Origin: a bacterium
Lineage (GTDB): Archaea > Thermoplasmatota > E2 > JACPAO01 > JAHFTW01
Reading direction: 5' to 3'
NCBI GenBank assembly: GCA_040390065.1
Contig: JAZJZE010000001.1
Span: 337,102-401,101, forward strand
DNA length: 64,000 nucleotides
Shown: positions 11,482-30,936 of the stretch, piece after piece
Layout of the letters: every line of letters begins with the position of its first letter
Numbering within the stretch: position 1 is the first letter of the stretch
Notes under the pieces: model-generated
What the model was told of the DNA's origin: nothing
Database searches by the model: none
The model's input: only the letters and a program-made list of their open reading frames with translations
Program-made: the position numbers and the translations under genes

Positions 11482-11626
11482 GGTGACTCCCCCCTCGCCT
11501 CGAAGGGCGCGAGGATCGATGCCGATGCGAACCGTGGAACCGAAGTTCCAGCGGCGTGGCGTGGGCGAACCCACGTCCGCCCGGGTTGCCCCGGACGCTT
11601 CTGCAAGCTTCGCGACAAAGGGGATG

Positions 11627-11634
11627 TATAAAAG
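11627..11634 (-). promoter_or_regulatory. TATA-box-like element (CTTTTATA) upstream of the rps13 operon
   Basis: The only strong A/T octamer in the 11482-11710 spacer. It sits ~145 nt upstream of the rps13 ATG, implying a long leader. Confidence 0.4.
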
Positions 11635-11710
11635 AATTGGGCTGGCCCCGGTGGTGCAAAAGGACTGATGGAAACGAAGGGAAGAGGGGGAGAGGGAGCG
11701 ACCTGTCGGC

Positions 11711-14593: not shown

Positions 14594-14610
14594 GGATTTC
14601 TGAGAAATCC
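14594..14610. promoter_or_regulatory. Perfect palindrome GGATTTC-TGA-GAAATCC in the promoter region of 14672..16648
   Basis: Seen directly. A further GAAAATCCTTTT patch at 14633-14644 lies ~30-38 nt upstream of ATG 14672. Confidence 0.3.
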
Positions 14611-14671: not shown

Positions 14672-16648
14672 ATGTGGGGAGCACGTGGTGGATTGGGCGC
14701 CGAAGCCGGCGCCCCGAGCAGGGATGAAACGCAGTCGGACCAGGCCCGCCGCGCCTCGCGCGCCCTGTCGGCAGTCGTCCTCGCCTTCCTTGCGACGTTT
14801 GCCGGCCTTGCCATCCCGCTCTTGCCGACCGCGACGGCGGCCCCCGGCGGCGCCGTCTTGGATAACGGCGTCGTCGCCCTCGGCGTCCTGCCACTTGGCA
14901 GCCTCGGCGTCGACAGCGCGGTGATGACGAACTGCAACCGCGCCAACCAGCCGCAGCACGCCGACCCGATCACGCTGCGGCACGACGGCCTGAACTCGGA
15001 CGCCAACTGCCAAGCCTACGAGGCCTGGGGCCTGGCGTATACGGGGGCATCGTCCTGCTGGGCCACGGCCACCAGCGTCGCTGTTCCATGGGCGGGGTTG
15101 AGCTCGCCGCCGCCTACACCTGTGTCCTTCACCGCCACCGCCACGACGGCGGTCTCCGTGGTGACGTGCGGCGACATCCAGATGACCCAATCCTTCAGCC
15201 CGCAGCCGGGATTCCCGCAGATCTTCCGCGACGACATCCAGATCGTCAACACCTGCATGACGTGCACTCTGACGAACGTGCAGTTCCGCCGCACAATGGG
15301 CTGGTTCGACATGAACATGCACACCAACTATGGCGGCAACTGCCAATGCCAGACGGCGCAGGACATCGACACGCTCCCGACGGCGGCGCCGACGCCCGCA
15401 AGCCTCGTCGCGACCGGCCTGGTGGAGCCGTACGCCATCGGCCCGCCGGCGCTCAGCGGCCCCGTGCCCGACCCGACCGTTCCCCTGACGTACGCGGTGC
15501 AAGGCCCCCCAGGCGGCCCCCCAGTGTACCACTTCGCCTACGTGCAGACGCAGTCGATGGTCTACGACCTCAACTTCGGGACCCTCGGTCCGGGAAGCAT
15601 GCAGCCTTTCGTCTTCTACTACGGGGCGGATACGAGCACAGACGCCGCGACGGCGGCCCTCACGACCATCGGGGCGCAGGTGTACAACTACGACAATCCG
15701 GTCCCGAACTGGGACACGCAGGCACCGACCCAGCTCCCCGGGCCTGTCGGCGTGTTTGCCTACCAGGAGCTTCCCAAGATCGACGTGACCCCGCCCGCAG
15801 GGCCGACGGCGAGCCACAAGGGCCAGCAGACGAACGGCTGCGGACTTTCGCCCGTCCAGTTCACCGACTCGTCAACGGCCGGCGGCGCCCCCATCGTGGG
15901 CTGGGCCTGGGACTTTGGCGACGGCAGCACCAGCACCGACCAGAACCCCCTGCACTACTATGGCGGAGAGGGCACGTACGCCGTCACCGAGACGGTCACC
16001 GACGCCAACGGAAACACGAACACCGTTTCGTCCACGGTCGACGTCACGACGACCCAGTGCACGGAACCGACGATCTCACAGTCGGACCCGCAGGGGATCC
16101 GGCCACCGCACGATGGCACCGACCCGGCAATCGCCGGCGCAGACGCGGACGGTGACGGCGTGGCGAACGCCTTGGACAACTGCGTGTTTGCAGCCAACGC
16201 CGATCAAGCCGACAGCGATGCGGACCTGGCCGGCGACGCGTGCGACATCGACGCCGACAACGACGGCTTGGCCAACAACGCGGACAACTGCCCGACGACC
16301 GCGAATCCCAACCAAGAGGACCTCGACGGCAACGGCGAGGGTGACCCATGTGACGACGACCAAGACGGCGACCATGTCCTGAATGGCATGGACAACTGCC
16401 CCACGGTCCCGAACACGCTGCAGGGCGACGTCGACGCAGACGGGGTCGGCGACGCGTGCCAAATCAAGACGCTGCAGGCCTTGGCGGTCGCGCCCACGGC
16501 AAGCCGAGATCTGACGACCGACCGCGGTGTCTCTGCCCCGGCACAGCCGCAGTCCACAGTGCCGCTCCTTCTGCCGGTCAGCATCGCGGCCGCCCTAGGG
16601 GCATTTGCCATCGGCCTCGTTGCAGCCGGCCGCCGGCGGAGGCGGTAG
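14672..16648 (+). CDS. Surface protein with PKD domain, thrombospondin type-3 (Ca-binding) repeats and C-terminal TM anchor
   Basis: Start re-picked at ATG 14672 because 14588-14671 has low third-position GC. PKD ([20 protein letters not shown]). TSP3 array ([45 protein letters not shown]..). Tail [25 protein letters not shown]. Confidence 0.8.
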
Positions 16649-16649
16649 C

Positions 16650-19600
16650 ATGGCGTTCCAGCGGGCCACGCTGCTCGCCCTGGCGCTTGCCGTCCTTGCA
16701 AGTGGGCTGGCCCTGTTTGCCCACACCGCGGCGGCAGGCGGCACCGGGTTCGAGATCCTGGCGGACAGCACATCCGACCATACGGGCGGCAGCCAGGACG
16801 CCGAGATCGTGCGCATCGGCGCCTCGTCCGACGCATCCCGGATCTATTTCTGGGTGAAGGTCGGCGACTCGAGCTCCTCGTATGACCCGACGGCGGCTGC
16901 CAACCACGTCACGGCCCTGACGTTTCCCGTCAACTTGATCGACAAGTTCGGCACCTCCCGCTGGTTCACCAACAAGTACGACACTGCGGGAGCGTGGTCC
17001 GGAGCCGACTTCGCGGTCGGCAACAGCGACTCCGGCTCCTCCACGCAACCGACGCCGTACACCGTCACGTGGGCCTGCAATGAGGTCAAGTATTCAGTCA
17101 GCCGCACGGGCTGGGGCGCCGCGGGTTCGCAAAACCCGGCGGACGGCGATGCCTGGACGGGCATCTGGGTCGATTCCAAGGATTTCGCCGCCGCGACGCT
17201 GTTCGACTCGGCTGGCCGCTCGACGCCCCCACCGGCCGGAACCGGATCCGGTGCATGGACCGTTGGCCAGAACGGAAACACCTGGCAAGACGCACCGACC
17301 CTCTCCGCCCTGACCCCGGTCGGGGACAACAAGGTTCGCGTCTCGTGGTCTGCGGCAGCGGACAACGGTGCCCAAGCCGTCTCCGCCTACCGTGTGTACC
17401 GCAGCGTGAACGGAGTCCTCCCGTTCGGGCTCGTCGCCACGGTGAGCTCCCCGAGCACGACGTACGATGACACGGGCCTCACGACGGGGTCGACGTACGC
17501 CTACAAGGTGTCCGCCGTCAACTGCCCACAACTACCGGCCAAGACGTCGGCGCCACCCGCGGGCGAGCCCTCTTACGTAGGCGGCGAGAGCCTGCGCAGC
17601 GCATCCATGTCCATCGTGCCCGACTTCCGGCCGCTCGCGGCAACCGGGCTTGCGGCTGGATCCCCCACGGCGGACTCGCTGCAGCTGACGTGGACCGCGC
17701 CGACGGACTGCCCCGCGGCATCTTGCACCCCGGCCGGGTCGGGTGGCAGCGGCATCCAGGGCTACAAGGTCTACCGCGGACCGTCGGGCGGCGAAGCCCT
17801 AGTGGACGACGTACTGGCCTCGGCGGTGTGCACACCTGCGTGCGCCTACACCAGTTCGGGCCTGACCGCCGCGACACACTACTGCTACTACATCCGGGCG
17901 TACGACAACTACGCCACGCCGAACCTTGGCCCCGCCTCGGCGGAGGCGTGCGGCGATACGACGTCCAGCGGTCCCACGCCGCCTGCGGCCGTCGCCGATT
18001 CTTTCAACGCAATCAAGGACACGCTCTTGACCGCGACCACTGCGTGCGTTCCGGCAGGCACGCCGGCCGCATCGGGCGGACCGTACGCGGGCGTCGTCTG
18101 CAACGACCAAGACACCGCGAACCACGTCATCACGGCGCTGCTGGTCTCCGGCCCGACCCATATCACGCCCGGAGGGACGTTTTCCCTCGACGCCAAGGGC
18201 GGCGTGACGTACCAGGCGGCGACCGGATACTGCGGCGGCACGGGCGATTCCTTCCAGTACCAACTGAAAGACATCGACACAAACACGCTGCTCAACACGG
18301 TCACGGCCAGCATCGCCGTCGCTTGCACTGCCGCCGACCCGTTCGCCTTGGCGGACTCCTATTCGCTCTCCGAAGACTGCAGCGCCGCTGCGGCCCTCCT
18401 CTGTGCAACGCCCTTTGCGGCAAGCGGGTATCCGGCCTGCGGCGGCACGGCGGGCGTGTTGTGCAATGATGTGAACACCCTCGGCCACGCGATCCGCGCC
18501 ATCCTGGGGGCTGGTGTCCTGCACGGCTCCTTGACGCTCTCGTCGAACGGCGCCTTCTCCTACACGCCCACCGCCAACTATTGCGGCAGCGACGCCTTCA
18601 CCTACACGTTGCACGATGACACCACGGCCGCCGACGTCAACACCGTGGCGGTCACCCTGACGCTTGCATGCGTCAATGACCTGCCGCAGCCGACCAACGA
18701 CAGCTATCTCGTCATCACGAACGCGGCACCGGCCTTGCTGAGCCCGAGTGTGACCGCCACGGACGGCGACCCCGACGCAGGCGTGGCCGCTTCTCCTGCC
18801 GCTTGGAGCACGCTCAGTATCACTGGCGTCACCCTGCCGAACTTTGGCGGCACGGCGACCATCGTCGGCAGCAACATCCGCTACAACCCGGCCGTCGGGT
18901 TCTCCGGTACCGAGACGTTCAGCTACACATTGTCGGACGCCGGCGGCTTGTCCGCAAGCGCCATGGTCAGCATCACCGTCCGCGCCAACCAGCTGCCCCA
19001 TGCCCACTTCGTGGCCAATCCCGGCAGCCCCGTGGTCGGTCAGCCGGTCACGTTCATCGACTCGTCTGCCGACCCGGATCCCGGGGACGCGGTGCAAACC
19101 CGGGCGTGGGACTTCGGCGATGGGTACGCATCCGCCGCGACCAGCCCGACGCACGTCTTCGGAACAATCGGCGGCGCCAAGGTCTGCTTGACGGTCAAGG
19201 ACGGCTTCGGCGCGTTCAGCCTCCCCTACTGCCAGAGTCTGGCCGTGCTCGCGCCGTCCGGTCCAGCCAATCCGCCGGGCTCGGGGCCTGCGCCGCCGAC
19301 CCAGCCTCCGGCACAACCGCCGGCGGAGCAACCGGGGACGCAAGCCTTCCATGTGGATGCCGGGCCGGCCCAACGTGTGCCGGCGGGCTCCGCGGTGACG
19401 CTGCACGCGTCCGCCGCAGGCGCGACCGCCTTCGCTTGGATCCAGACGGCGGGCCCGCACGTCGACCTGCAAGCCGCGGGCACGGCGTCGCCGACGTTTG
19501 CCGCCCCCAAGGTCGCCAATCCGTACGCCGTGCTGTTCTTCGAGGTCACCGCACAGGGTGCGACGCAGAGCGCCGTCGGCGGCGTCATGGTGACCGTGGA

Positions 19601-20099
19601 GGCCGGGCCGGGCCCGGTCGCCGCCGTGAACTCCGACTCCTCCGCCGAGCCAGCGCAGACGGTGGCCCTCGACGCAAGCATGTCCAAGGATGACAACGGC
19701 GAGAGCCTCTCGTACCACTGGACACAGTGGGAAGGGCCGCCCGTCGTCATCGCCGACCCGAACGCGGCCCGGACGACGTTCACTGTCCCCGATGCGCCAT
19801 CCGGTACGAAGCTGCGCTTTGGCCTCGAGGTGAGCGACGGCCAGGCCTCGGGCGTCGCCGTGCAGACCGTCACGGTCGCCCCGTCCTCGATCGAAGTTCC
19901 CCAAGTCCCCGGCGATGGCGAGAAGGCCGCGCAGGACACCGCCGCCGCGGCGCCGGGAGGGGGGGCGTCCGTCCCGCAAGCAGCGGCCGCCGATTCCGGG
20001 GCGAAGGTCGGATTGGCGGTGTGGATCGTCGTAGCAGTTGCTGCCGTAATCGCCGTGGTCCTGCTGGTCGCATTGTGGCCGCGCAAGGGCACCACGTAG
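16650..20099 (+). CDS. Giant adhesin-like surface protein (FN3 x2, cadherin-like Ig repeats x3, PKD, C-terminal repeats, TM anchor)
   Basis: ATG at 16650, directly after the stop of the upstream gene. Signal MAFQRATLLALALAVLASGLALFAHTAAA. FN3 (VRVSWSAA..YRVYRS..YAYKVSAVN). ND..D cadherin-like units. PKD (RAWDFGDGYASAATSPTHVF). Tail LAVWIVVAVAAVIAVVLLVALWPRK. Confidence 0.85.
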   Translation: MAFQRATLLALALAVLASGLALFAHTAAAGGTGFEILADSTSDHTGGSQDAEIVRIGASSDASRIYFWVKVGDSSSSYDPTAAANHVTALTFPVNLIDKFGTSRWFTNKYDTAGAWSGADFAVGNSDSGSSTQPTPYTVTWACNEVKYSVSRTGWGAAGSQNPADGDAWTGIWVDSKDFAAATLFDSAGRSTPPPAGTGSGAWTVGQNGNTWQDAPTLSALTPVGDNKVRVSWSAAADNGAQAVSAYRVYRSVNGVLPFGLVATVSSPSTTYDDTGLTTGSTYAYKVSAVNCPQLPAKTSAPPAGEPSYVGGESLRSASMSIVPDFRPLAATGLAAGSPTADSLQLTWTAPTDCPAASCTPAGSGGSGIQGYKVYRGPSGGEALVDDVLASAVCTPACAYTSSGLTAATHYCYYIRAYDNYATPNLGPASAEACGDTTSSGPTPPAAVADSFNAIKDTLLTATTACVPAGTPAASGGPYAGVVCNDQDTANHVITALLVSGPTHITPGGTFSLDAKGGVTYQAATGYCGGTGDSFQYQLKDIDTNTLLNTVTASIAVACTAADPFALADSYSLSEDCSAAAALLCATPFAASGYPACGGTAGVLCNDVNTLGHAIRAILGAGVLHGSLTLSSNGAFSYTPTANYCGSDAFTYTLHDDTTAADVNTVAVTLTLACVNDLPQPTNDSYLVITNAAPALLSPSVTATDGDPDAGVAASPAAWSTLSITGVTLPNFGGTATIVGSNIRYNPAVGFSGTETFSYTLSDAGGLSASAMVSITVRANQLPHAHFVANPGSPVVGQPVTFIDSSADPDPGDAVQTRAWDFGDGYASAATSPTHVFGTIGGAKVCLTVKDGFGAFSLPYCQSLAVLAPSGPANPPGSGPAPPTQPPAQPPAEQPGTQAFHVDAGPAQRVPAGSAVTLHASAAGATAFAWIQTAGPHVDLQAAGTASPTFAAPKVANPYAVLFFEVTAQGATQSAVGGVMVTVEAGPGPVAAVNSDSSAEPAQTVALDASMSKDDNGESLSYHWTQWEGPPVVIADPNAARTTFTVPDAPSGTKLRFGLEVSDGQASGVAVQTVTVAPSSIEVPQVPGDGEKAAQDTAAAAPGGGASVPQAAAADSGAKVGLAVWIVVAVAAVIAVVLLVALWPRKGTT

Positions 20100-20226
20100 C
20101 CGCCGGCGCCTTCGGCGGTCCCTGACGGTTGAAGGCTCGGGCCCCGGCAACCGGAAAGAGGCTGTTCTTCCCACACATCGCGAGGCCGCCTTATCCAGGG
20201 CACGCGCGTTGGTTGCCCGGGTCCGC

Positions 20227-21210
20227 ATGACACGAACCATCCCCTTGGCGCTTGCCGTGATTGCCGCTGTATCGCTCTTCGTCACGGCCGCCGCCGTCCG
20301 CGGCCCCGAAGGCTCGCCCGCCCCCATCGCGACGCACGCGGCCCCCCTGCCCTCCGTCCAGGAGATTGCTGCGTCGATGTCGGAACCCCCCGTTCGCCAC
20401 ATGATGAAGCCATTCAGCCACGCGCCGGCCGTCACGCTCCCCGTCCCCACCCCGCCGGTCGCGGCTGACGCCCTGCCGTCGGGCGGAGGGAACCTCGTGT
20501 ACCACGGCGGGCCCGTCCAGACGGCCCCCAAGGTCTACCTGGTCTACTGGGGCTGGAACGGCGTCGACCCAGCCAACGTCGAGCCCTACCTCACGGCGTT
20601 CTTCAACGGCGTTGGCGGCACGGGCTGGGCCAACATCCAGACCCAATACTCCAGCATCACCAACCCGACCGGCCAGCTCGCCGGCGTGTGGCACGACAAC
20701 TCGGCTCTACCGCCAACGATCCCCGACCTGTGGCTGCCCGCCGAAGCAATCCGGGCCGAGGCGTACTTCGGATACAGCGCGGACGCCGACTACATCATCG
20801 CGACGCCGCCGTACAGTTCCACGGCGGGCTTCGGCGCGGAATTCTGCGCCTGGCATTCGACCACGACGGACAGCCTGAGCCGCAATGTCGCGTTCACCAA
20901 CCTGCCGTACATGCCGACCATGCCGGAGACCTGCGGCGCCTACTCGGTCAACGGTGGCCTGCCCTACCCGGGCCTTCTCGATGGCGTCAGCATCGTGGCA
21001 GGGCACGAGTACGCCGAGGTCGTGACGGATCCCGTGCCGGTCACCGGATGGGCCGACTCGACCGGCGGCGCCGGCGAGAACGCCGACAAGTGCGCCTGGG
21101 TGACCTCTGGACCCGGCCACATGCAGAACGTCGCCTGGAGCACCGGCACGTTTGCGGTCCAGGGTCTCTGGAGCAACGCCGCCAGCGGTTGTGTCATCAC
21201 GTACCCGTAG
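20227..21210 (+). CDS. Secreted protein, weak resemblance to PHI-1/EXORDIUM family
   Basis: ATG 20227 gives MTRTIPLALAVIAAVSLFVTAAA signal. NLVYHGGPV..VYLVYWG and VAGHEYAEVVTDP recall EXORDIUM-like motifs (from memory; the function call is weak). Confidence 0.6.
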   Translation: MTRTIPLALAVIAAVSLFVTAAAVRGPEGSPAPIATHAAPLPSVQEIAASMSEPPVRHMMKPFSHAPAVTLPVPTPPVAADALPSGGGNLVYHGGPVQTAPKVYLVYWGWNGVDPANVEPYLTAFFNGVGGTGWANIQTQYSSITNPTGQLAGVWHDNSALPPTIPDLWLPAEAIRAEAYFGYSADADYIIATPPYSSTAGFGAEFCAWHSTTTDSLSRNVAFTNLPYMPTMPETCGAYSVNGGLPYPGLLDGVSIVAGHEYAEVVTDPVPVTGWADSTGGAGENADKCAWVTSGPGHMQNVAWSTGTFAVQGLWSNAASGCVITYP

Positions 21211-21270
21211 TTGCCGAGGAATGCGAAATCCATGCCAGGCTCATGAGGGCCCGGCCATGATGCGGCGGCC

Positions 21271-22413
21271 ATGCCTTTGGGCCTGCGTCGCGTCGTGCCG
21301 GCTGCCATCCTGGTCGCCCTCCTCGCCGGGCCGTCCACGGGGCTGGCCCCGACATCGGCGTTGCAGCCGCCCGACGTCGAGTCGTTCTGCGACATGCACA
21401 CCAAGCACTGCGAGCCCGTGCCCCTCGACCTGAGGCAATGGCTGGTCCCGCAGAGCCAACCGATGTCGCAGACGTCGGATTCCGACACACAGCGCTGGCT
21501 CGTGGCGCCGATCCGTGGCTACCTCACGCACGACGAATACCAGATCATCCAAGGCCTGGTGCCGGACATCCCGACTGTGCCGCTCGCAGCACCGCCGGGG
21601 GCCATCAACGAGACAGTCGGGGAAAACGTGACGGTGCACAAGGAGGTTGCCGGCATCACGCTGGACGGCCAGGCCACGCTCAGCGCCACCGTGCTCGTCC
21701 CGCTGCCGCCGGAGCAAGGAGAGGCCCCCGCGGGGTCCGTCCCTTGCACCGACCCGCGCGGCTGTCCTGACCTGACGGTCGACGCCGCCCGGCTTGCCGA
21801 CGGCATCCTCGAGAAGCGCACGTTCACGTCGTCGTCGTGCGCCGTCGTCGAGAACAGCACGTCGCCCGGAACGCGCCGACTCCTGCGTTTCACCTTCGCG
21901 ACGCCGAACATCGGCGACGGCGACCTGCTCATCGGGGACCCCGCCGAGCATCCCTCCTGGTTCCAGTGGGGTGCGTGCCATGGCCATTGGCACTTCAGGC
22001 AGTACGCCGAGTATCGTCTTTGGACGCTGCGGGCGTACGTCGCGTGGCGCCACGCCCGCGACGCCGCCCCGACCGCCACGGCGGCGCAAGTCCTGGCGCA
22101 GCATCCGGAGCTGGCTGCGGGCTTCCTCAGTGGGCACAAGCAGGGATTCTGCGCCATCGATGTCGTGCCCTACGCGCCGCTCGAAGCCCCGCGATACCAA
22201 TCGTGTGCCACCCACCAGGGGATCTCGCGCGGCTGGGCGGACGAGTATGGCTACGCGCTCGACGGCCAGTGGGTGGACATGACCGGCGTGGCGGCCGGCG
22301 CGTACGTGCTCGAAGCGGAAGTGAACCCCGCGCGCTTCTACCAAGAGACGGTGTACACGAACAATTCGGGGGCGCTGCTCGTCGTCATCCCGCCCGACAC
22401 CCCTATCGTGTGA
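21271..22413 (+). CDS. Lysyl oxidase-like copper amine oxidase (LOX family), secreted
   Basis: Collinear with the animal LOX catalytic domain: RRLLRFTF.., WFQWGACHGHWH (cf. WEWHSCHQHYH), GHKQGFCAIDV (cf. GHKASFCLEDT), QGISRGWADEYGYALDGQWVDMTGV..YVLEAEVNP..YTNN. N-terminal signal peptide. Confidence 0.85.
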   Translation: MPLGLRRVVPAAILVALLAGPSTGLAPTSALQPPDVESFCDMHTKHCEPVPLDLRQWLVPQSQPMSQTSDSDTQRWLVAPIRGYLTHDEYQIIQGLVPDIPTVPLAAPPGAINETVGENVTVHKEVAGITLDGQATLSATVLVPLPPEQGEAPAGSVPCTDPRGCPDLTVDAARLADGILEKRTFTSSSCAVVENSTSPGTRRLLRFTFATPNIGDGDLLIGDPAEHPSWFQWGACHGHWHFRQYAEYRLWTLRAYVAWRHARDAAPTATAAQVLAQHPELAAGFLSGHKQGFCAIDVVPYAPLEAPRYQSCATHQGISRGWADEYGYALDGQWVDMTGVAAGAYVLEAEVNPARFYQETVYTNNSGALLVVIPPDTPIV

Positions 22414-22608
22414 TGGTCACCGCAAGTAGGTTCACGGACGCGCCGTTCCTCCGAGAAACATGGCAATTGCGCGGTCGCGGCAAGCGCGGTTGGCAAATGG
22501 TTTCACGCGTTCGTTCTTGGATTTCCCACAAGTCCCGTCAATCATTATCATCGGCGCCCATTATCGACGCCCGCCCGCCGGGACAACCTGGCGGTTGGAG
22601 ACATCGAC

Positions 22609-23616
22609 ATGCACAAGAGAACACTGAGTCTGGGCCTCGCGGCCCTGTTTGCAAGCCTCGCTTTGGCGGGCCCGATCGCATCGGCCCTCCCCGGCGACAA
22701 CCAAGACCTGAGCCGCACGTTCTACATCAACGCGGCCCGCGTCACCACGCCCGGTATCGGCTGGTTCCAGAACACGCCTCATCAGGTCTGTGTCATCGAG
22801 CTCTTCGGTGTCCAAGCCCCTCTCGGCGTCTTCTACTACGAGAGCCTGCGCGTCTACACCAACGCCGGCACGTCGACGACGATCCCTGCCCTCATCCCGC
22901 CGGTCCCGCTCGCTTGCCCGGCCGCCATCAATCCGGCCTGCAACAACCCGGGCCCGGTTGACCCCTGCGCCATCCAGGTCGGCGGCGTTACGCTGGCCGG
23001 TGGCCAGTTCATCAGCCAGGACGCCCTGCACTGCCTCAAGGACGCGGTCAACAACTGCTTCGCCGTCGCCGGCACGCAGGAGTGGACCCTGACGCGCTGC
23101 CCCTACGCGAGCATCGTCTACACGGCCCCCATGGCTCAGGGCAAGGGCACCTTCGCGGGCACCCCCCTCGACGGCGTCCTCATGACCCCCGCCATCCACT
23201 GCACGGCAGGCGCAGCCGGCGCGGCCAGCTTCGACGCCTCGGCCTACATCGACTTCTTCACCGACGGCGAGTCGGGAACGAGCTTCAACATCGTCCCGGT
23301 CGGCACGATCGTGCCGGCCGCCGCTGGTGACAGCTACGTCATCTCGTGCTACAACGTCGACAAGCTCATCCTGTCCGGCGTGCCCATCTCGTCGCACACC
23401 GACCTCGGTGAGGACTCCGAGTCGCACGACTGGGCCCTCGTCCTCGACCAGAACGACGTCCCGGCCAGCCACCAGGCCGCCATCACCGCCCACCTGGGCG
23501 GCGGCAACCTGCAGGGCCTGTACGACCTCAGCGGCCAGAACGGCTGCGATGACGGCTCCAACGTCGCCTACATGGACGTCGACGACCCAGCCGGCGCGAC
23601 CGTCCTGACGCCGTAG
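22609..23616 (+). CDS. Secreted Cys-containing protein, unknown function
   Basis: MHKRTLSLGLAALFASLALAGPIASA signal peptide. High third-position GC. No recognisable domain. Confidence 0.65.
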   Translation: MHKRTLSLGLAALFASLALAGPIASALPGDNQDLSRTFYINAARVTTPGIGWFQNTPHQVCVIELFGVQAPLGVFYYESLRVYTNAGTSTTIPALIPPVPLACPAAINPACNNPGPVDPCAIQVGGVTLAGGQFISQDALHCLKDAVNNCFAVAGTQEWTLTRCPYASIVYTAPMAQGKGTFAGTPLDGVLMTPAIHCTAGAAGAASFDASAYIDFFTDGESGTSFNIVPVGTIVPAAAGDSYVISCYNVDKLILSGVPISSHTDLGEDSESHDWALVLDQNDVPASHQAAITAHLGGGNLQGLYDLSGQNGCDDGSNVAYMDVDDPAGATVLTP

Positions 23617-23686: not shown

Positions 23687-23694
23687 GGAAATCC
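23687..23694 (+). promoter_or_regulatory. TATA-like GAAATCCA about 30 nt upstream of ATG 23719
   Basis: The spacing fits a leaderless or short-leader archaeal promoter. The same WWATCC(A) core recurs upstream of other genes here. Confidence 0.35.
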
Positions 23695-23718
23695 AGTCAA
23701 CCTTGAAGGCGGCCCCAC

Positions 23719-26700
23719 ATGTCGACGGCTGCTTTTCCCATGACCGGCCCAACGACAACCTCACGCCGGCCATCCGGCGCAATCCTCGCAGCCTTGGTTG
23801 CACTCCTCGTCCTTCCTGCACTCCCCGCCGAGGCCGCGACCCCGCAGGACGTGTGGGTCCAGGCGACCGATGCCGTCGTGGCCCGCGCTCCCGCCAGCCT
23901 CCTCGACGAGCCGGATTTCCGTAATGCCAGCGCCCACCATGCCTACCGCACCGCCATGCTGGATGCCAGCGTTGCCCATGCCACCGCCTTGGCCCACGCG
24001 CTCTGGGAGGAAGCACAGAACGCGCCGAACCCGGCCCAGCAGTACTTGTATGAGCTGGCCAACGAGACGCAAGCCAACGCCGGTCGCATCGACCACGCGA
24101 GCGCGCGCATGGCCGCCCTCGAGGCCGGAGACCTGCACGCAAACCAGCTCGAAATCCTCCTCACCGCGGCCAACGTCCTTGCCGATGCCGAACAGGAACA
24201 CGTGCACGCCGTCGGGTACTTGATGCCCGAGCAGTCCGTCGACGTCTTCCGCTCCGAGACCGGGCGATACTCGTTTGCCCACCCCGTCGCCATGGCCGGC
24301 GACCTCGCGGCCGCGACCGAACGCATCCTCGATCTCGTGCCGGCGCCATCCGGGCCGCGGGCCGACCTTGCGGGCATGGCCCAGCGGATCAACGGGCTCT
24401 CGCTGCCCACGTTCCAGTGGCCGGTCGCCCATCCCGGCATCGTCGAGGAGACGGCGCGTCGAATCTATGCATACTCGGCTCTCCAGGGCAACACGACGGT
24501 CGCCGAGCTTGACGCAGTGATCCAGCAGTTGCCCGCTGAACGTCAGCGTCTGCAGGATGCCGGATATGACGGCGTGCATATCGTCGAAGTGCAAGGTGAT
24601 GCCTCCTGGTGGCTGACGCAGGCCCGGGCCGACCCCGACTCTGCAGTCACCGCTGGCGTCGTGCGCAGCCAAGCGGCGTACGCGCACGGTGCCATCCTGG
24701 AGGCCAACCTGCTCGCTGCTCCGGCCAACCGGCCGTCGTCGGCGGCCATGTGGATTGGCCTTGCGTGTGCGGGAGTTGCCCTCGTGGGCGGCCTGTGGTG
24801 GCGCGGACGCCGAAGGTCTGGCGGGCGGAAGGGCAAGGCGCTCCTTGGGCTGCTGGCACTGCTCATGGTGCTGCCACCGGTCCAGGGTGCGCTTGGAATG
24901 GCCGCCGTCAACGACCCGTCCGCCCCGCCGACCGTCGTCCCCGGCCCCGAAGGTGGAGCCTGGGGTTCTGCCGCCGCCCTTGCCAACGGCACACTGCTGT
25001 TTGCCTGGCCGTCCTGTCCCGGCACGTTCGTGGACGGGTGCTCCGACCTCTACCTGCGCATGTACGACCCAGTGGCCGACAAATGGAGCGCGTCGTGGCG
25101 CGCCGTCGACGACCTGTACCACGTCTCGATTGCCAAAGTGTTCCTCGTTGGGGCGGACGTCCACGTCGTCTGGGAGGAACAGCTGGGCAACGCGACCGCC
25201 CCCGTCGTCCTCGTCCATTGCGTGCTGTCCGGTCGCACGTGCGGCGCCCGCGAAACGTTCACGGACACCGCCGGAACGGCCATCATGTTCAGCGGCGCCG
25301 TCGGCGGCAACGGCCACCTGCGGATCGCCTACTTGCGCTCTGACCTGATGCAGGTGCATGTGCGCGAATGGTCGAGTGCCGGCTGGGGAGCCGACAAACG
25401 CTTCGACACGGGCTCGTCCCTGCAGACGCGCCCCAACGTCCTATGCGGGACCGACGGCGCCTGCTACGTCACATGGGAGGAGGGCGTGCCCGGATCCAAG
25501 GAGACGAAGGACCGGCGCGTCGAACTCGCCATCGTCGATGCCGGCGCAGATGTCGCCCGCAAAGTCATCACGGTCCCAGCCCAGGGCTCCTTCCAGCAGA
25601 TGGCCGCCGCCTTCCCCATCCCCGAGGGCGTCGGGGCCCTGTACGGCACGCAGCGGGACTTGTTCTTCGCGGTCCTCGACCCGGCCACGGGCCAATGGTC
25701 GGCGGCCACCAACGTGTCGCGCGGGCATCCGCCCACGGCCCCAGCCCTCGTGGGCGCGTACACGCTGGGCGGCGGTGACGTGCTTGCCGTGTGGCAGACC
25801 GGGACGGTCAACACGTTCCAGATGTGGGCGGCACGGCGCTCCGGCGGCTTCTGGCTCGCTCCCGAGCTGCTCGTCGGCAAACCCTACCAAGAACACATGT
25901 TCGTCCCGATGGCGCAGCCCCAAGCGTCGGGCGACCTGGTGTTGGCGTGGACCGGCAATGGGCCCGGCATCGCGGACAATATCCTGCTCACACGCCGCAT
26001 CGCCGGCGGCACGGCCCCGCCCCCAGGGCCTCCGACCGTGACGTGGCGCGAGCCTCGTGCTGGCGGCTGGACGGGTTCGGCCGTCGACCTGGCAGCGCAA
26101 CTCGAATTCGCCGCGACGCCGGACGCCGCCTCCGTGGTGCTCACCGTCGACGGCCGGGCGCTCGCAACGACGTTGTCGCCCGACGGCCACGCGCACGCAC
26201 GTGCGACGGGGCTTGCCGAAGGGGCGCACCACGTGACGCTGCATGCTGCAGACCGCTTGGGAGCAGCCTGCGATGAGCAATGGGATTTCGCCGTCGATGC
26301 AACGGCGCCGGCACTGAGTGTGCAGATCGTGGGTCCCGCGACATCCGCGTCTGCGCCCTGGGCAAACCAGGTGCTGACGGTCGTCGCCTCGGCTCCACAG
26401 GATGGCGGCAGCCCCGTCCACTTGCAGGTCGACCATGATGCCGCGGGCGATTGGCGCGACGCCACGGCGGCCGGCTGGAAGGCTGTCGGGCTGGTGCCGT
26501 CGATCATTGGTGCCGCCGTGCCCGAGAACCGCCTTCTCGACGTTCGCCTTCGTGCGGTCGATGACGCGGGGAACGTTGCCCTTGGCTCGCCGATGGCCCT
26601 TGGCTGGGACGCCACCCCGCCCCTGATGCAAGGCGGGCCGGCCCCGACGACGCGGCCAGGCCGGGTTCCTCTCCTCTTGACGGACCAGGCCGCAGCGGGA

Positions 26701-27228
26701 TCTCCACTCCACTACGAACTCCAGGTGTCGGGGCCCGGCGGCAACGCGCAGCAGACCTCCATGGACGGCATGGTCATCCTTCCCGCGGAAGGAACATGGC
26801 AAGTCCGTGGGCGCGCATCCGACGCCGCCGGAAATGCACAATCAATCGGCCCGTGGACCGTCGTGGTGGACGGCACGCCGCCGACGGTCTCGGTGGCGTG
26901 GCAGGGCGACGACTTCCGTCTCACCGCCAGCGACGCGGGAGGCCTCGCCCATGTGGCCATGACGGCTGGCGACGGCCGGCCCATCGAGTCGAACGCGACC
27001 GGCACCTCGGCGGCGTCGGATGGCCGCTGGGAGGGCGCCCCCATCGGGGTCAACGTCCGCGACGCGGCCGGAAACGAACTGTCGGGTTTCATTGCAGAGT
27101 CCGGCGGCCAACTCGTCGCGTCGGCGCCGGAAAAGCCGGCGGGGAAGTCGACGCCGGCACTGCCCCTCGCGCTGGTCGGCCTGGCCGTGCTGGGCCTTGC
27201 CCTAGGCCGGAGGCGCCAGGATGGCTGA
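23719..27228 (+). CDS. Large envelope protein: signal peptide, helical ectodomain, TM-basic loop-TM hairpin, beta-propeller-like region, Ig-like repeats, C-terminal TM anchor
   Basis: ATG start. LAALVALLVLPALPAEA signal. Internal AAMWIGLACAGVALVGGLWWRGRRRSGGRKGKALLGLLALLMVLPPVQGALG. Tail LPLALVGLAVLGLALGRRR. Confidence 0.8.
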   Translation: MSTAAFPMTGPTTTSRRPSGAILAALVALLVLPALPAEAATPQDVWVQATDAVVARAPASLLDEPDFRNASAHHAYRTAMLDASVAHATALAHALWEEAQNAPNPAQQYLYELANETQANAGRIDHASARMAALEAGDLHANQLEILLTAANVLADAEQEHVHAVGYLMPEQSVDVFRSETGRYSFAHPVAMAGDLAAATERILDLVPAPSGPRADLAGMAQRINGLSLPTFQWPVAHPGIVEETARRIYAYSALQGNTTVAELDAVIQQLPAERQRLQDAGYDGVHIVEVQGDASWWLTQARADPDSAVTAGVVRSQAAYAHGAILEANLLAAPANRPSSAAMWIGLACAGVALVGGLWWRGRRRSGGRKGKALLGLLALLMVLPPVQGALGMAAVNDPSAPPTVVPGPEGGAWGSAAALANGTLLFAWPSCPGTFVDGCSDLYLRMYDPVADKWSASWRAVDDLYHVSIAKVFLVGADVHVVWEEQLGNATAPVVLVHCVLSGRTCGARETFTDTAGTAIMFSGAVGGNGHLRIAYLRSDLMQVHVREWSSAGWGADKRFDTGSSLQTRPNVLCGTDGACYVTWEEGVPGSKETKDRRVELAIVDAGADVARKVITVPAQGSFQQMAAAFPIPEGVGALYGTQRDLFFAVLDPATGQWSAATNVSRGHPPTAPALVGAYTLGGGDVLAVWQTGTVNTFQMWAARRSGGFWLAPELLVGKPYQEHMFVPMAQPQASGDLVLAWTGNGPGIADNILLTRRIAGGTAPPPGPPTVTWREPRAGGWTGSAVDLAAQLEFAATPDAASVVLTVDGRALATTLSPDGHAHARATGLAEGAHHVTLHAADRLGAACDEQWDFAVDATAPALSVQIVGPATSASAPWANQVLTVVASAPQDGGSPVHLQVDHDAAGDWRDATAAGWKAVGLVPSIIGAAVPENRLLDVRLRAVDDAGNVALGSPMALGWDATPPLMQGGPAPTTRPGRVPLLLTDQAAAGSPLHYELQVSGPGGNAQQTSMDGMVILPAEGTWQVRGRASDAAGNAQSIGPWTVVVDGTPPTVSVAWQGDDFRLTASDAGGLAHVAMTAGDGRPIESNATGTSAASDGRWEGAPIGVNVRDAAGNELSGFIAESGGQLVASAPEKPAGKSTPALPLALVGLAVLGLALGRRRQDG

Positions 27229-27901
27229 CCCCGTGGAAAACGGCAATCCAGGCAGGGCGGAAGGTCCCGGGGCGAGCCCTGGTCCCCACCATTGGACGCG
27301 ACGCAACTCGCCCTCCCCCCGAAAGGCTGAAACACATGCACGCCTCTCCCGGAATGTGGTCGTGCCCGGTCTCCTGGTCCAGGATAGCGCGGGCCGGCCC
27401 TCCGCCGACGGCGAAGTGACCCGCCGACTCGCAGTCGTCGCCCGGATCCTCGCCGAGCAGCCCGGCTGCACGATCCAGGAAGTCGCACTCCAGCTGCAGT
27501 GCAGCCACACGACGGCCGCGTATCACCTCTCCAAGATGGCCGCGGCGGGCCGCGTCCTGCAGCGCCGCGAAGGAAGGGTCGTGCGCCACTACTTGGCCGG
27601 CGATGAGACGCCCGCCGCCTGGCTGCGCGCGTTTGTCGCGGAACCCAAGCGCCGCGAGCTTGCGGTCACCCTCGGCGGCACCGAACGCCGCGAATGGCCG
27701 GTGAACAAGCTTGCCCGCCACATCGGAATGCATCACGGATGGGTCATGCGATCGCTGCGCATGCTCGAGACGCAGCGCTTCATCGTCCTCATTCGGCCCC
27801 GCGCCAGGTATTACGTGCAACGGACCGCCGCGTTGCAGCAGGCGCTGCAAGAGGCGCAAACGGTTCGCGTTGTCGTCGAAGTCGTGACGGACCCGTCGTA
27901 G
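27221..27901 (+). CDS. Double winged-helix transcription regulator (ArsR/TrmB-like), soluble
   Basis: ATGGCTGA start/stop overlap with 23719..27228. HTH units TIQEVALQLQCSHTTAAYHLSKMAAAGRV and PVNKLARHIGMHHGWVMRSLRMLETQRFIV. Confidence 0.7.
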   Translation: MADPVENGNPGRAEGPGASPGPHHWTRRNSPSPRKAETHARLSRNVVVPGLLVQDSAGRPSADGEVTRRLAVVARILAEQPGCTIQEVALQLQCSHTTAAYHLSKMAAAGRVLQRREGRVVRHYLAGDETPAAWLRAFVAEPKRRELAVTLGGTERREWPVNKLARHIGMHHGWVMRSLRMLETQRFIVLIRPRARYYVQRTAALQQALQEAQTVRVVVEVVTDPS

Positions 27902-27966: not shown

Positions 27967-28241
27967 CTAGAGGTCATTGCATAACCTCCAGGAGGTCTGC
28001 GCGCGCCGGTTTGCAAGGAGTGCTAGGAGGTTGGGCCGACTTCGTGGCAGCGCCACGACGAGGTCCAGGCGACGACGCAATCCGCCGCAAAGCGGCGCGC
28101 CCTTGCGGGTCGTTTTCCGGCCACACACTCCTGGCGCCGGCGGTCTTGGCGGACTTCCGGCCCGCCGGCGACCGCCCCCGCCAGGATCGCGAAGGCCGGA
28201 AAACGACGCAGGCACCCTGGAAGCTATGCAATGACCTCTAG
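27967..28241. mobile_element. MITE-like element, 275 bp, ~26-bp terminal inverted repeats
   Basis: Left end CTAGAGGTCATTGCATAACCTCCAGG. Reverse complement of right end CTAGAGGTCATTGCATAGCTTCCAGG (24/26 match). No ORF of transposase size. Sits between convergent genes. Confidence 0.7.
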
Positions 28242-29743
28242 TGTTCGCTTCGTCGTGGGCGGCGCGACGGCCAGCCCCCAAGCAGGCTACGCAGAGCTGG
28301 ATCGCCCTCTGCGTCTTCGTGGAGGGTCGGGTCATGGCGGCGAGCGATGTCCAGCCAGGCGAGCGCGTCGTCGCGCAGGTCCAATCGGGCGAAGGTGCGC
28401 GCAGCCGTCAAGGCGTTGCTTGCCATCGCCTCTCCTTCATCGGCCGGGAACCGACGCTGCGCCTCTTGGTGGTCGCGGCGGGCCAGGTCGGCCTTTCCCA
28501 AGGCGCCATGGCAGCGGGCCCGCACTGCGTACGCGTCAGCGCACGATGGATCGAGTCGGATGGCCCGCGTGGCCCAGCGCCGCGCCTGTCGCCAGGCGGA
28601 ATCCTCCGCACTCGTGTGCGCGTGGGCCAATGCCCGGGAGGCGGCGGCGCGGCGGCGCGGACTCACGCGGGTCGGCAGGCGACGCCGCAGCAGGGCGGCG
28701 ATTGCGATTGCCACGAGAGCGGCGCCTAGAAGGTCAAGCCATAGCCATCCAGCGGGTCCAGGCGACGTGGCCATCGTCGCTGGGGACGTGGGGCCGGCCG
28801 TCTGCCCCGAGACCGCTACCGGGATGCCCGATTGAGCGGGGCCTGCCCGCAGCTTGAGGCTGCCCTCGAGGTGGAGGGTCAGACCGCCAACCGGCCCAGC
28901 CACCCCATCGCGCACGAGCGTGCCGACCGGGTTGTGCAGGTCGAGGCGGCCTTGGACGACCATCTCTGGCTGCTGCACGTAGACGAAGGCGATGTCGCCC
29001 AACTCGCTGGGGACGGTGAGCGCGCCGTGGGTGACTTCGAGGAATGCTTCCTGGTCGCGGGTCGCCCCGGGGTCCGCGCTCGGCCCGGCAAGGGGTTGCA
29101 TGCCCGTCGGAATGGAAACCCTTCCTTCCAGACTGTCGAGTTGCACGTCCCACTGCCAAAGGGCCAGGACGAAGTCTCCGGTGATGGTCGCGTTGGCAGG
29201 CGCGCACGGCTGCATGTGCACGGCTGCCTGGACGTCCGCCGTCAGCGTCGCGTGGACGCCGAGTTGGGAACTGTAGGTGAGGCTCTGGGCGTTCGTCGGC
29301 CGAGCGACGTTGCAGGTGATGGAATCGGTCCAGACTGGGGGCGCGTGGCCGGGCATCGGCTGCACGACGAACCAGTAGCCAGGTCGGTTCACGATTCCCG
29401 TGACGCTCGCAGCGTGGTAGTCGTTCTCGCTGTGATGGCGCCCCTGGGGCTGGCTCGCGATGATGCCGTGGACGACGATGTCCGCTTCGTCCACGACCAG
29501 GTGCAGGGCGTCTGCCCGCAGGGAGAAGGGCGACGAGGCCTGGGCATTGCTTGGGGCTCCTACAGGGACGTTGCCGCCCGAGGCCAACTCGAACGCACCC
29601 AGCGGGCCGCTTGTCGCGGTGAGGCCCGTGAGGTCGGCTTGGCTGACGGTCAGGGACCCCTGCACGTCGCTAGCCTCGGCAAGGCCGGCCATCGCAAGGA
29701 CAGCACAAATCAAGGCGGCGGGGAGGAGAGCGCGGGCCGTCAC
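28238..29743 (-). CDS. Single-pass membrane protein: extracytoplasmic domain plus cytoplasmic TPR-like repeats
   Basis: GTG at 29743, 7 nt after the stop of the upstream gene, gives (M)TARALLPAALICAVLAMAGLAEA signal. TM GWLWLDLLGAALVAIAIAALLRRR. C-terminal TPR-like helices (AYAVRARCHGALGKADLARRDHQEAQR). Confidence 0.7.
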   Translation of the reverse strand: MTARALLPAALICAVLAMAGLAEASDVQGSLTVSQADLTGLTATSGPLGAFELASGGNVPVGAPSNAQASSPFSLRADALHLVVDEADIVVHGIIASQPQGRHHSENDYHAASVTGIVNRPGYWFVVQPMPGHAPPVWTDSITCNVARPTNAQSLTYSSQLGVHATLTADVQAAVHMQPCAPANATITGDFVLALWQWDVQLDSLEGRVSIPTGMQPLAGPSADPGATRDQEAFLEVTHGALTVPSELGDIAFVYVQQPEMVVQGRLDLHNPVGTLVRDGVAGPVGGLTLHLEGSLKLRAGPAQSGIPVAVSGQTAGPTSPATMATSPGPAGWLWLDLLGAALVAIAIAALLRRRLPTRVSPRRRAAASRALAHAHTSAEDSAWRQARRWATRAIRLDPSCADAYAVRARCHGALGKADLARRDHQEAQRRFPADEGEAMASNALTAARTFARLDLRDDALAWLDIARRHDPTLHEDAEGDPALRSLLGGWPSRRPRRSEH

Positions 29744-29750
29744 GAGGCGA

Positions 29751-30272
29751 TCAGACCGGTGGCGGGAGGAGGCATTCCGTCCGGAGGTCGTAGAACGGGA
29801 AGCTCGGCAGCGAACGCACAATATTGGTGCAGTACGGGTACGGGAACAGGGTGCCGTCAATCAGGGTGGGCAGGCCGAGGGTGCCGAACACGCCGTTGTA
29901 GAGGGGTGGCGAGTGGACTACGATGGCTGCGGGGCCCTCGCCATCAGCCGTGATGGCGGCGATGCTGAAGACCGTCGGCATGGGGTCCGCCGCCGTCGTG
30001 AAGGTGAGGAGCGGGCCTTCGTAGACAATCTGGGCGTTGGCCTTGATGACGTAGCTCGTCACCGGGTTGGAGCCCGCGATGACGGGCGGGTCCCAGCGCA
30101 GCGCCACCGTGTTGGTGCTGTCGTCGTAGGCCGCGTTGACATGCGTCGGCATGCCGGGCGGCGTGTTGACTGGGTCGGCGTAGGTCGAGGCAGGAACGAG
30201 GATCATGAACAGGGCCGTCAGGAGGATGGCAGTAAAGGGTCGCGTCACGGGACAATCCACCACGGTTGGCAC
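29751..30272 (-). CDS. Secreted fibronectin type III domain protein
   Basis: FN3 pattern (VALRWDPP..VTSYVIKAN). Signal TRPFTAILLTALFMILVPASTYA. A GTG at 30248 is a likely alternative start. Confidence 0.65.
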   Translation of the reverse strand: MPTVVDCPVTRPFTAILLTALFMILVPASTYADPVNTPPGMPTHVNAAYDDSTNTVALRWDPPVIAGSNPVTSYVIKANAQIVYEGPLLTFTTAADPMPTVFSIAAITADGEGPAAIVVHSPPLYNGVFGTLGLPTLIDGTLFPYPYCTNIVRSLPSFPFYDLRTECLLPPPV

Positions 30273-30337: not shown

Positions 30338-30353
30338 GGATTTGCGGTAAATC
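30338..30353. promoter_or_regulatory. Imperfect palindrome GGATTT-GCGGT-AAATC in the divergent promoter region
   Basis: Seen directly in the 30273-30375 spacer. A CATATAGA TATA-like patch lies at 30283-30290. Confidence 0.3.
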
Positions 30354-30375
30354 TGCATTGGCCTGAAGATGGCCG

Positions 30376-30936
30376 GTGGTCTTCGGCCGCGTGGTGGTGC
30401 CGGGACCTTCGAGTCGACATCGGCTACGCAAGCCGAACGTGAATCGCAACCGCATCGAGGACACGGTCCGGCGCAGTCCGGGTGTCACCAAGAGCGAGTT
30501 GGCGCGCCTTTTGGGGCTTGGCTGGGGGACCATCTCCCATCACTTGGCCTTCCTCGAAAGCCAGGGCATCGTTGCGGCGTTCCCCGTCGGCAAGGGCGTA
30601 CGCCTGTACCCGGCTGGGCGCCCCGAGGCCCGTCTTCTCGCCGTCCTGTCGGATGGTCCCGGCGCCGCGCTCACGGCATTGCTGGCGCACCGCCCCGGCC
30701 AGACGCTCAGCGACCTGAGCCGCGGCCTCGGAATCTCCCGCAAGATCGTCCGCCGCCACCTCGGGCAGTTGGGCCGCGAGGGACTCGTCGGCGAGGCCGG
30801 CATGCACCGGCGCCGCTACTTCCTCCATGAAGGCGCGGCCGAGCGGGCCCAAGGCCTGCCCATCGAGGCTCCGGCGCCGCGCCTCTTCGTCGTCGCGAAC
30901 CAACCGGTGCTCCAGTCGGCAAGTCAGCCGGGGTAA
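30376..30936 (+). CDS. Double winged-helix transcription regulator (ArsR/TrmB-like), soluble
   Basis: HTH units TKSELARLLGLGWGTISHHLAFLESQGIV and TLSDLSRGLGISRKIVRRHLGQLGREGLV. Start uncertain (GTG 30376 or GTG 30439). Confidence 0.7.
   Translation: MVFGRVVVPGPSSRHRLRKPNVNRNRIEDTVRRSPGVTKSELARLLGLGWGTISHHLAFLESQGIVAAFPVGKGVRLYPAGRPEARLLAVLSDGPGAALTALLAHRPGQTLSDLSRGLGISRKIVRRHLGQLGREGLVGEAGMHRRRYFLHEGAAERAQGLPIEAPAPRLFVVANQPVLQSASQPG

Follow-up and report, generated by a model that had tools for sequence, protein, structure and literature searches.

The stretch of DNA examined here, 64,000 nucleotides of contig JAZJZE010000001.1 (GenBank assembly GCA_040390065.1, positions 337,102 to 401,101; hereafter the window), contains a gene for a secreted lysyl oxidase (LOX) among genes for exported and membrane-anchored proteins. 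The region from 14.6 to 30.9 kb of the window is best explained as a surface-protein island from a Thermoplasmatota-like soil archaeon that is uncultured and has a high GC content. The conserved core of this island appears to consist of LOX, the secreted protein E, the anchored protein F, the J-H gene pair, and ArsR-like winged helix-turn-helix (wHTH) regulators, joined in related genomes by a very large secreted protein, G, and an S8 protease; this is the best explanation of the loci that we compared. The grouping is evident from gene content, from the catalytic residues and predicted fold of LOX, from synteny that is conserved but shuffled, and from a palindromic box common to the island genes. 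We favor, at slightly less than even confidence, the explanation that these genes form a co-regulated envelope module whose LOX would oxidize amines on the co-expressed surface proteins and might thereby cross-link them. Coordinates of all genes and box copies are collected in Table 1.

The protein encoded by the LOX gene (gene D) matched the Pfam model Lysyl_oxidase (PF01186) with E = 1.9e-22 and 80.4 bits, against a cutoff of 20.4. In a phmmer comparison with human LOXL2 (PDB 5ZE3; E = 7.7e-13), the CHxHxH, GHKxxFC, and DxY motifs all aligned: C236-H237-x-H239-x-H241 corresponds to CHRHYH of LOXL2, K290 falls in GHKASFC, and D324-x-Y326 corresponds to DMY. The copper-binding histidine triad (C236, H237, H239, and H241) and the residues of the lysine tyrosylquinone cofactor (K290 and Y326) were invariant in alignments of 15 and 60 homologs, and the catalytic motifs were kept in all 12 island copies of the enzyme. 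The AlphaFold 2 (AF2) model placed the catalytic domain at residues ~155-378 with a predicted local distance difference test score (pLDDT) >90. When this model was searched with Foldseek, 5ZE3 was the sole significant PDB match (E = 1.8e-13, probability 1.00, root mean square deviation of 2.7 Å over 221 columns), and the matches ranked after it were unrelated. The catalytic domain follows a predicted signal peptide and an N-terminal extension of ~130 aa, modeled at moderate confidence as two helices and a beta-hairpin, which most LOX homologs lack. LOX is therefore a genuine family member, secreted by prediction and catalytically intact as judged by motif and fold. An initial annotation of positions 14672-23616, made from the sequence, had named it a secreted lysyl-oxidase homolog, and the NCBI product name already reads lysyl oxidase family protein.

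We compared the window with contigs carrying the closest LOX homologs, with 80 LOX loci of species-representative genomes (covering Thermoplasmatota, Actinomycetota, Myxococcota, Sphaerotilus/Burkholderiales, Verrucomicrobiota, and Acidobacteriota), and with loci reached through the partner proteins. In a rough neighbor-joining tree, the long-form LOX copies of the islands grouped together, apart from a short-form clade. Nine long-form loci were available, the window and eight related loci. Every related long-form LOX contig with enough flanking sequence carried homologs of the window genes that lie to the right of LOX. F adjoins LOX in six of the nine loci, and the contigs of the other three (L103, L106, and L089) are too short to show it; L089 stops at LOX. 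Partner proteins are just 24-32% identical between loci, while gene order, orientation, and flanking genes vary, and the adjacency to LOX has therefore survived long divergence and rearrangement.

The extent of this shuffling is seen in the individual gene orders. The window reads LOX-E-F-I(wHTH), then H-J on the minus strand, then the regulator gene HTH. The corresponding orders are J-H-LOX-E-F in L105; E-F-J-H-LOX-LOX-G in L003; H-LOX-LOX-G in L103/L104; and LOX-J-H in L106/L107. G on the minus strand precedes a LOX::LOX fusion-E-F in L001 and LOX-LOX-F-S8 in L085. L002 carries F and E on the minus strand, then LOX-LOX-S8, a wHTH gene, and J-H, plus two more wHTH genes. LOX is usually duplicated as two tandem paralog types, a and b (L002, L003, L085, and L103); in L001 the two are joined in a single 642-aa LOX-LOX fusion (10001-11929). 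By these homologies, the conserved set lies mostly beyond the interval 14672-23616.

Outside the long-form loci, this neighborhood was not recovered. None of the 80 other LOX loci contained E, F, J, or full-length G, with the exception of a weak G-like open reading frame in L004 (1.7e-14). L015 gave an H-like match, and its LOX groups on the long-form side of the tree. The short-form LOX genes of other Thermoplasmatota stand in unrelated contexts, such as housekeeping genes. Two of them (L007, 2010-6879, and L008, 2666-7744) lie beside genes for an MMPL-family transporter and an arginine decarboxylase, a context that may point to a function of the short-form clade connected with polyamines or agmatine.

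The second line of evidence is a palindromic box with the consensus GGATTTC-N3-GAAATCC. Its half-site, GAAATCCA, occurs nine times in the window compared with 0.79 expected, and none of 100 shuffles reached nine; five of the nine copies fall in the promoter regions of A, LOX, E, and F, at 31-91 nt ahead of the respective start. The sequence TGATTTGCGGTAAATCC, nearly identical to the palindrome between J and HTH, was found upstream of LOXa in L103. Among the related loci, the box stands before LOXa, LOXb, and E in L003; it precedes LOXb in L103, E in L105, both F and the S8 protease gene in L085, and J in L002. The LOX-upstream box of L003 and L103 occupies the same position as the half-site in the window, with an 11/14 match in L085, and weaker copies stand before LOXa in L103 and before LOX in L085, L001, L002, and L089. 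When we counted only boxes matching at least 12 of 14 positions, the 152 kb of island loci yielded 10, all of them intergenic and upstream of island genes, compared with one in the other 97 loci (1.43 Mb); the frequency in island loci is thus ~90-fold above background. No box of this quality was present in the individually checked short-form Thermoplasmatota LOX loci or in the rest of the window.

Most plausibly, the box is the operator of a regulon, and the wHTH proteins of the island are its candidate binders. Two such proteins are encoded in the window. The product of gene I matched the NCBIfam ArsR/SmtB model at 7e-11 and is 34-38% identical to the three wHTH proteins of L002; the 186-aa HTH protein matched the same model at 6e-11 and is 27-30% identical to the L002 island regulators. 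Both scores (41.8 and 42.1 bits, respectively) are below the model's cutoff of 55. We infer the binder, rather than observe it, because regulator genes were seen in just two island loci, the window and L002. The inverted repeat upstream of each transcription unit, together with model matches at E ~1e-10, resembles the arrangement of ArsR/SmtB repressors. A copper link would be natural for regulators of a copper enzyme, with the reservation that these regulators score below the curated cutoff and occur in two island loci. The annotated start of I overlaps the F stop codon by 8 nt (27221-27228), which suggests translational coupling, and the true start may lie downstream.

Table 1. Island genes and box copies in window coordinates
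Feature	Positions	Strand	Description	Basis
Box upstream of A	14594..14610		Perfect box GGATTTC-TGA-GAAATCC, 14/14, 62 nt upstream of A start	
A	14672..16648	+	Anchored PKD and thrombospondin type-3 repeat surface protein, 658 aa	Pfam, hydropathy
B	16650..20099	+	FN3 / cadherin-like / Big_9 / PKD anchored surface protein, 1149 aa	Pfam, NCBIfam, C-terminal transmembrane segment
C	20227..21210	+	Predicted secreted 327-aa protein of a large uncharacterized family	Homolog search
Half-site upstream of LOX	21225..21232	+	GAAATCCA, 46 nt upstream of LOX start	
LOX (gene D)	21271..22413	+	Predicted secreted long-form lysyl-oxidase-family copper amine oxidase, 380 aa	Pfam, phmmer, AF2, Foldseek
Box upstream of E	22519..22535		GGATTTC-CCA-CAAGTCC, 12/14, 73 nt upstream of E start	
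E	22609..23616	+	Predicted secreted 335-aa Cys-rich protein (10 Cys), rare family	Homologs near LOX
Half-site upstream of F	23688..23695	+	GAAATCCA, 31 nt upstream of F start	
F	23719..27228	+	1169-aa multi-domain anchored envelope protein	Homologs, transmembrane segments, Big_13
I	27221..27901	+	ArsR/MarR-like winged-helix regulator, candidate box binder	HTH_20 2e-6, homologs
H	28238..29860	-	Signal peptide, ~330-aa ectodomain, transmembrane segment, cytoplasmic TPR-like tail	Homologs, transmembrane segment
J	29751..30272	-	Small predicted secreted single-FN3 protein, ~150 aa	fn3 1.5e-3
Box-like palindrome	30338..30354		GGATTTG-CGG-TAAATCT, 11/14, divergent J / HTH intergenic region	
HTH	30376..30936	+	Double winged-helix ArsR/MarR-like regulator, 186 aa, divergent from J-H	HTH_5 3e-15

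None of the partner proteins E, F, G, H, and J is covered by a curated family model. By homology, F is the most constant partner of LOX: full-length homologs with 24-30% identity stand beside LOX in L001, L002, L003, L085, and L105. The protein is predicted to begin with a signal peptide and a helical ectodomain of ~300 aa, followed by a hairpin of two transmembrane (TM) segments (TM-RRR-TM), a region of ~350 aa, Big_13-like Ig domains (Pfam Big_13, 1.3e-5), and a C-terminal TM anchor. The ~350-aa region contains six to seven periodic 'DGxxHxxW' motifs with invariant tryptophans, and it is on this periodicity and these tryptophans alone that we would call it propeller-like. BLAST found no internal repeats in the middle region of F, and profile matches of the F family in the PDB were confined to the Ig region apart from a match to a designed propeller with an E-value of 0.14.

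E gave no match in Pfam or NCBIfam. It occurs in five LOX loci including the window, with homologs of 28-31% identity in L001, L002, and L003 and a further one in L105. An N-terminal hydrophobic segment and its cysteines agree with the initial annotation of E as a secreted, Cys-rich protein. Only four relatives were found in the database, two of them paralogs in the same metagenome-assembled genome (MAG), and an AF2 model built from a four-sequence alignment was unusable (pLDDT of 28.5). The paralog P0122 (L084) is 53% identical to E and lies ~217 genes away in the same MAG by locus tags, among genes for RHS-repeat, Kelch/IgGFc-binding, and cadherin-like/PKD surface proteins; L084 contains no LOX, F, or upstream box. 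The other paralog, P0121, shares 86% identity with E and carries an additional Cys-rich stretch at its C-terminus.

G, a secreted protein of >3,000 aa with faint PKD/FN3 signals only, stands beside LOX in four loci, and its homologs are 27-32% identical over ~2,700 aa. H is 28% identical over 430 aa to the LOX-adjoining gene of L003, and the H profile also matched in L103, L105, L106/107, L002, and L015. Its TM segment spans residues 373-391 by hydropathy, and its probable start is the GTG at 29743. The arrangement of J followed by H recurs in L003, L105, L106/107, and L002; H occurs without J in L103 and L015. With the GTG start, H would overlap the J stop codon by 9 nt (29743-29751), as in L105, again suggesting translational coupling. 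The S8 protease is found in L002 and L085; the window contains none, other than a match to a 24-aa subtilase-like fragment at 44488-44559.

Lysyl oxidases underlie animal connective tissue. The enzymes turn primary amines, protein lysines included, into aldehydes, which condense spontaneously. In the module that we favor, the regulators would turn on all box-bearing transcription units together, and LOX would be exported. Its ~130-aa extension would perhaps then be removed, as is suggested because animal pro-LOX is so processed and because truncation activates the Haloterrigena turkmenica enzyme. The mature enzyme would oxidize primary amines to aldehydes, the likeliest targets being the few lysine side chains of F and G and, in this genome, possibly those of A and B. 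Condensation of the aldehydes would then link the proteins covalently and so stiffen or tether the envelope.

Several observations weigh against this explanation. The partner proteins are lysine-poor, with about 0.4-2% lysine compared with 5.5-6.2% in uS4, uL3, and PurB of the window. Alignments of E, F, and G contain no invariant lysine column; K179 of E is conserved among paralogs and not among orthologs. No collagen-like (GXY)n or elastin-like KAAK motif is present in A, B, C, E, F, H, or J; KAAK-like motifs were found nowhere, G included, and the sole (Gxx)n run is one of 15 residues in the L001 copy of G. The composition of the island itself varies: the window lacks G, L085 lacks E, an E paralog lies away from any LOX, and the regulator genes are limited to the two loci named above. 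Our sampling consists of eight to nine mostly short metagenomic contigs. A reciprocal word-based protein search from F returned F itself only, and a metagenome scan with the F alignment returned 13 loci that matched only through generic Ig-like 'DxAGN' repeats and carried no LOX, E, or full-length F. Finally, the specificity of the characterized archaeal LOX, from H. turkmenica (HTU-LOX), is relaxed, in that the enzyme accepts taurine, glycine, and aminoglycosides, and its native role has been regarded as cryptic (PMC6452851). The lysine depletion of the exported island proteins, all of which have 0.4-1.8% lysine, may be a general trait of the secretome or an adaptation to a secreted lysine oxidase.

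The main rival explanation is that LOX is a broad-specificity extracellular amine oxidase serving nutrition or defense: it would scavenge nitrogen, detoxify polyamines or amine antibiotics, or generate H2O2, and the surface proteins would be co-regulated with it but not its substrates. It stands foremost because the partners are poor in lysine and have neither an invariant lysine nor collagen or elastin motifs, and because HTU-LOX is promiscuous, acting on many small amines, aminoglycosides, and polymyxin (PMC6452851). The arginine decarboxylase and transporter genes beside the short-form LOX of L007 and L008 point the same way, and lysine-poor surface proteins would be well suited to coexist with a promiscuous amine oxidase. 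However, a role in nutrition or defense leaves unexplained why F, E, J-H, and G have been retained through rearrangement at such low identity and why they share an operator. In addition, the long-form clade differs from the short-form clade in both genomic context and N-terminal extension. We regard a broad amine oxidase as possible but doubtful.

Alternatively, LOX could mature one dedicated partner, either by modifying F or E with an aldehyde- or quinone-type group or by linking F to G through one site. The presence of F in every related LOX locus with sufficient flank is consistent with such a role, as is the small number of lysines per partner. The two LOX paralog types, each with its own box, suggest two specificities. 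Against it, neither E, F, nor G has a lysine column that is invariant, and the structure model of E could not be used. Maturation of a single partner is, in our judgment, unlikely.

The initial annotation had drawn attention to the immediate neighbors of LOX. It described five consecutive same-strand genes as a clustered, eukaryote-style extracellular-matrix (ECM) toolkit, and took the location of LOX beside giant anchored adhesins to suggest covalent cross-linking of an archaeal surface or biofilm matrix. The genes are indeed all on the plus strand, and NCBI gene calls on the contig share their starts (MES2153845-MES2153850; locus tags V4510_017xx-018xx). Intergenic spacing is 1 nt between A and B, 127 nt between B and C, 60 nt between C and LOX, 195 nt between LOX and E, and 102 nt between E and F; the plus-strand run continues beyond 23616 through F (23719-27228) and then I (27221-27901). 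By hydropathy, all five of A, B, C, LOX, and E have a hydrophobic, signal-like N-terminal segment, and every island product carries an export or anchor signal.

Pfam domains and C-terminal TM segments also bore out the description of A and B as anchored TSP3/PKD and FN3/cadherin-like/PKD proteins. A matched TSP_3 in three stretches (E = 2e-26, 91.8 bits) and PKD_4 (3e-16), and B matched fn3 (3e-13, 50.2 bits), Cadherin_5 (8e-16, 58.1 bits), Big_9 (1e-25, 90.4 bits), PKD_4 (1e-14), and a K319L-like PKD domain (6e-18, 65.2 bits); PKD_4 scored 59.7 bits, and all of these domain matches exceed the Pfam cutoffs. In both proteins the C-terminal TM anchor, identified by hydropathy, is followed by basic residues. 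The nearest curated families, however, are bacterial: myxobacterial MtsC (a region of A matched at 2e-32), tandem-95 repeat proteins, and BapA/LapF adhesins, all below the NCBIfam cutoffs. A and B resemble these adhesins in combining repeat modules with membrane anchors. They differ from them in that the matches are at the domain level only and in that their C-termini are of an archaeal style, a TM segment with a basic tail rather than MYXO-CTERM. By this comparison the domains of A and B are ordinary prokaryotic surface modules, and the term eukaryote-style toolkit over-reads them.

C had been called EXORDIUM-like. The protein itself gave no Pfam match at E <= 10, Phi_1 included, and no NCBIfam match; what survives of the suggestion is a faint signal in its family, in which 2 of 25 sampled members matched Phi_1 (PF04674), the better at 8.3e-5. 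The family, with 2,408 representatives at E <= 1e-3, may thus have remote homology to Phi_1/EXORDIUM; a sequence-profile search of the PDB with it found no match. C corresponds to the ~240-aa N-terminal domain of this family, a domain frequently found in fusion with Ig, PKD, DUF11, or Kelch modules. The invariant residues C207, H210, H260-E261-x-x-E264, and D287, with four cysteines, resemble a metal or active site.

Conservation did not extend to these three genes. Homologs of A, B, and C were found by tblastn in none of the eight related long-form LOX loci and in none of the 80 further LOX loci, where the queries gave just isolated, generic PKD/FN3 domain similarity. What holds from the initial annotation is an intact LOX among anchored surface proteins; its A/B/C neighborhood is not conserved, and F (six loci) and G (four loci) are kept instead. 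A, B, and C are best explained as lineage-specific accessory surface proteins that joined the island. Because A carries a perfect copy of the box that marks LOX, E, F, and J/HTH, A and B are probably co-regulated with LOX in this genome, although they are not conserved partners.

We therefore consider it quite unlikely that LOX specifically cross-links the adjacent TSP3/FN3/cadherin/PKD adhesins and so forms an archaeal equivalent of the ECM toolkit of animals. Their position next to LOX on one strand, their probable co-expression with it, and the lysine content of B (20 residues, the highest among proteins encoded in the island of the window) are compatible with a role as substrates. Their absence from all other LOX loci compared, the wide occurrence of their domains in prokaryotes, the lack of collagen- or elastin-type motifs, and the mere three lysines of A speak against it. 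Least probable of all is that LOX has no functional link to the island and merely hitchhiked in a variable set of surface genes, its synteny reflecting shared ancestry: all loci do come from one archaeal lineage and variable surface genes abound in the islands, but the adjacency persists while order, orientation, and flanking genes differ, the partners have diverged to 24-32% identity, and the box is strongly enriched upstream of island genes.

The source genome is archaeal, because the window contains matches to the archaeal equivalog models of RpoD, uS4, uL3, uS3, uL5, and SecY. NCBI labels the source MAG 'bacterium' despite its archaeal ribosomal proteins, RpoD, and SecY, and homologs of the island genes were found solely in MAGs labeled as Thermoplasmatota. 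The GC content is 64-71% throughout the window and its composition is flat across the island, so that base composition in the 64-kb window gives no sign of recent transfer. Directly upstream of the island, on the plus strand at 13395-14516, lies a gene for an FAD-dependent amine oxidoreductase resembling ThiO, sarcosine oxidase, or D-amino-acid dehydrogenase, with every match below the NCBIfam cutoffs; the presence of a second amine-oxidizing enzyme beside LOX may be coincidence. Further downstream, a tRNA-Ser(CGA) gene lies on the minus strand at 43808-43891. A 208-bp unit that begins inside this gene is repeated in 2.2 copies at 99% identity (43842-44309), reiterating part of the tRNA sequence downstream, and could represent an integration scar or a duplicated attachment site. 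The subtilase-like fragment mentioned above lies just past this repeat.

Compared with animal LOX and LOXL1-4, of which human LOXL2 (5ZE3) is the structural reference, the window enzyme has the same PF01186 domain, CHxHxH motif, GHKxxFC lysine, DxY tyrosine, and conserved cysteines, with a predicted fold that superposes. It is likewise predicted to be secreted, its catalytic domain is preceded by an N-terminal extension, and genes for large extracellular proteins lie next to its own. In contrast to the animal system, there is no collagen or elastin, there are no GXY or KAAK motifs, and SRCR domains are lacking. The partners are unrelated archaeal envelope proteins, the island has a palindromic putative operator and wHTH regulators, and cross-linking is here our inference.

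HTU-LOX is the only characterized archaeal LOX; it oxidizes lysine-containing peptides and proteins, is sensitive to beta-aminopropionitrile, and is activated by N-terminal truncation (PMC6452851). Like the window enzyme, it is an archaeal member of the LOX family with a hydrophobic N-terminus, and its activation by truncation is compatible with a pro-region such as the ~130-aa extension described here. The two are set apart by description: HTU-LOX has low expression and no reported conserved gene context, whereas the window LOX belongs to a long-form clade with partners and a putative operator. Grau-Bove et al. (2015) surveyed bacterial and archaeal LOX homologs and reported thaumarchaeal and euryarchaeal groups; they did not settle the function and thought it unlikely that these enzymes cross-link the collagen-like proteins of bacteria (PMC4448552). 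The simple architecture of those homologs, a signal peptide and a LOX domain, is shared by the window enzyme, and the patchy distribution that they described (Actinomycetota, Myxococcota, Proteobacteria, Acidobacteriota, and Verrucomicrobiota) was recovered again here. Their survey does not mention the F/E/J/H/G neighborhood or the box (PMC4448552), and neither study mentions an operon or the genomic context of LOX (PMC6452851, PMC4448552). A limited literature search found no work that connects LOX with Thermoplasmatota or with archaeal S-layers, and no paper that it returned describes the neighborhood or the box. The native role of prokaryotic LOX is still termed cryptic or enigmatic (PMC6452851, PMC4448552).

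That the LOX family occurs in archaea was thus already known (PMC4448552), bacterial and archaeal homologs having been on record since 2015; what is added here is a conserved LOX envelope island with a putative operator and candidate substrates. The locus and its relatives supply a conserved neighborhood, a common candidate operator, and a short list of potential substrates (F, G, E, J-H, and here A/B), which makes the question of prokaryotic LOX function directly testable. In addition, E, F, G, H, and J emerge as new protein families whose functional context can be tested. In its strongest form, which we put forward as a speculative possibility, our explanation would have wall-less, Thermoplasmatota-like soil archaea covalently cross-link their protein envelope with a dedicated system of one or two LOX paralogs, possibly under a copper-responsive ArsR-type operator, with F and G as targets and A/B as accessory ones. 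Such a system would be a prokaryotic, independently assembled analog of animal ECM cross-linking and the first native function of a prokaryotic LOX. If cross-linking does take place, it would represent a new mode of envelope stabilization in archaea without a cell wall, and it would be relevant to the question of whether matrix chemistry based on LOX is older than animals.

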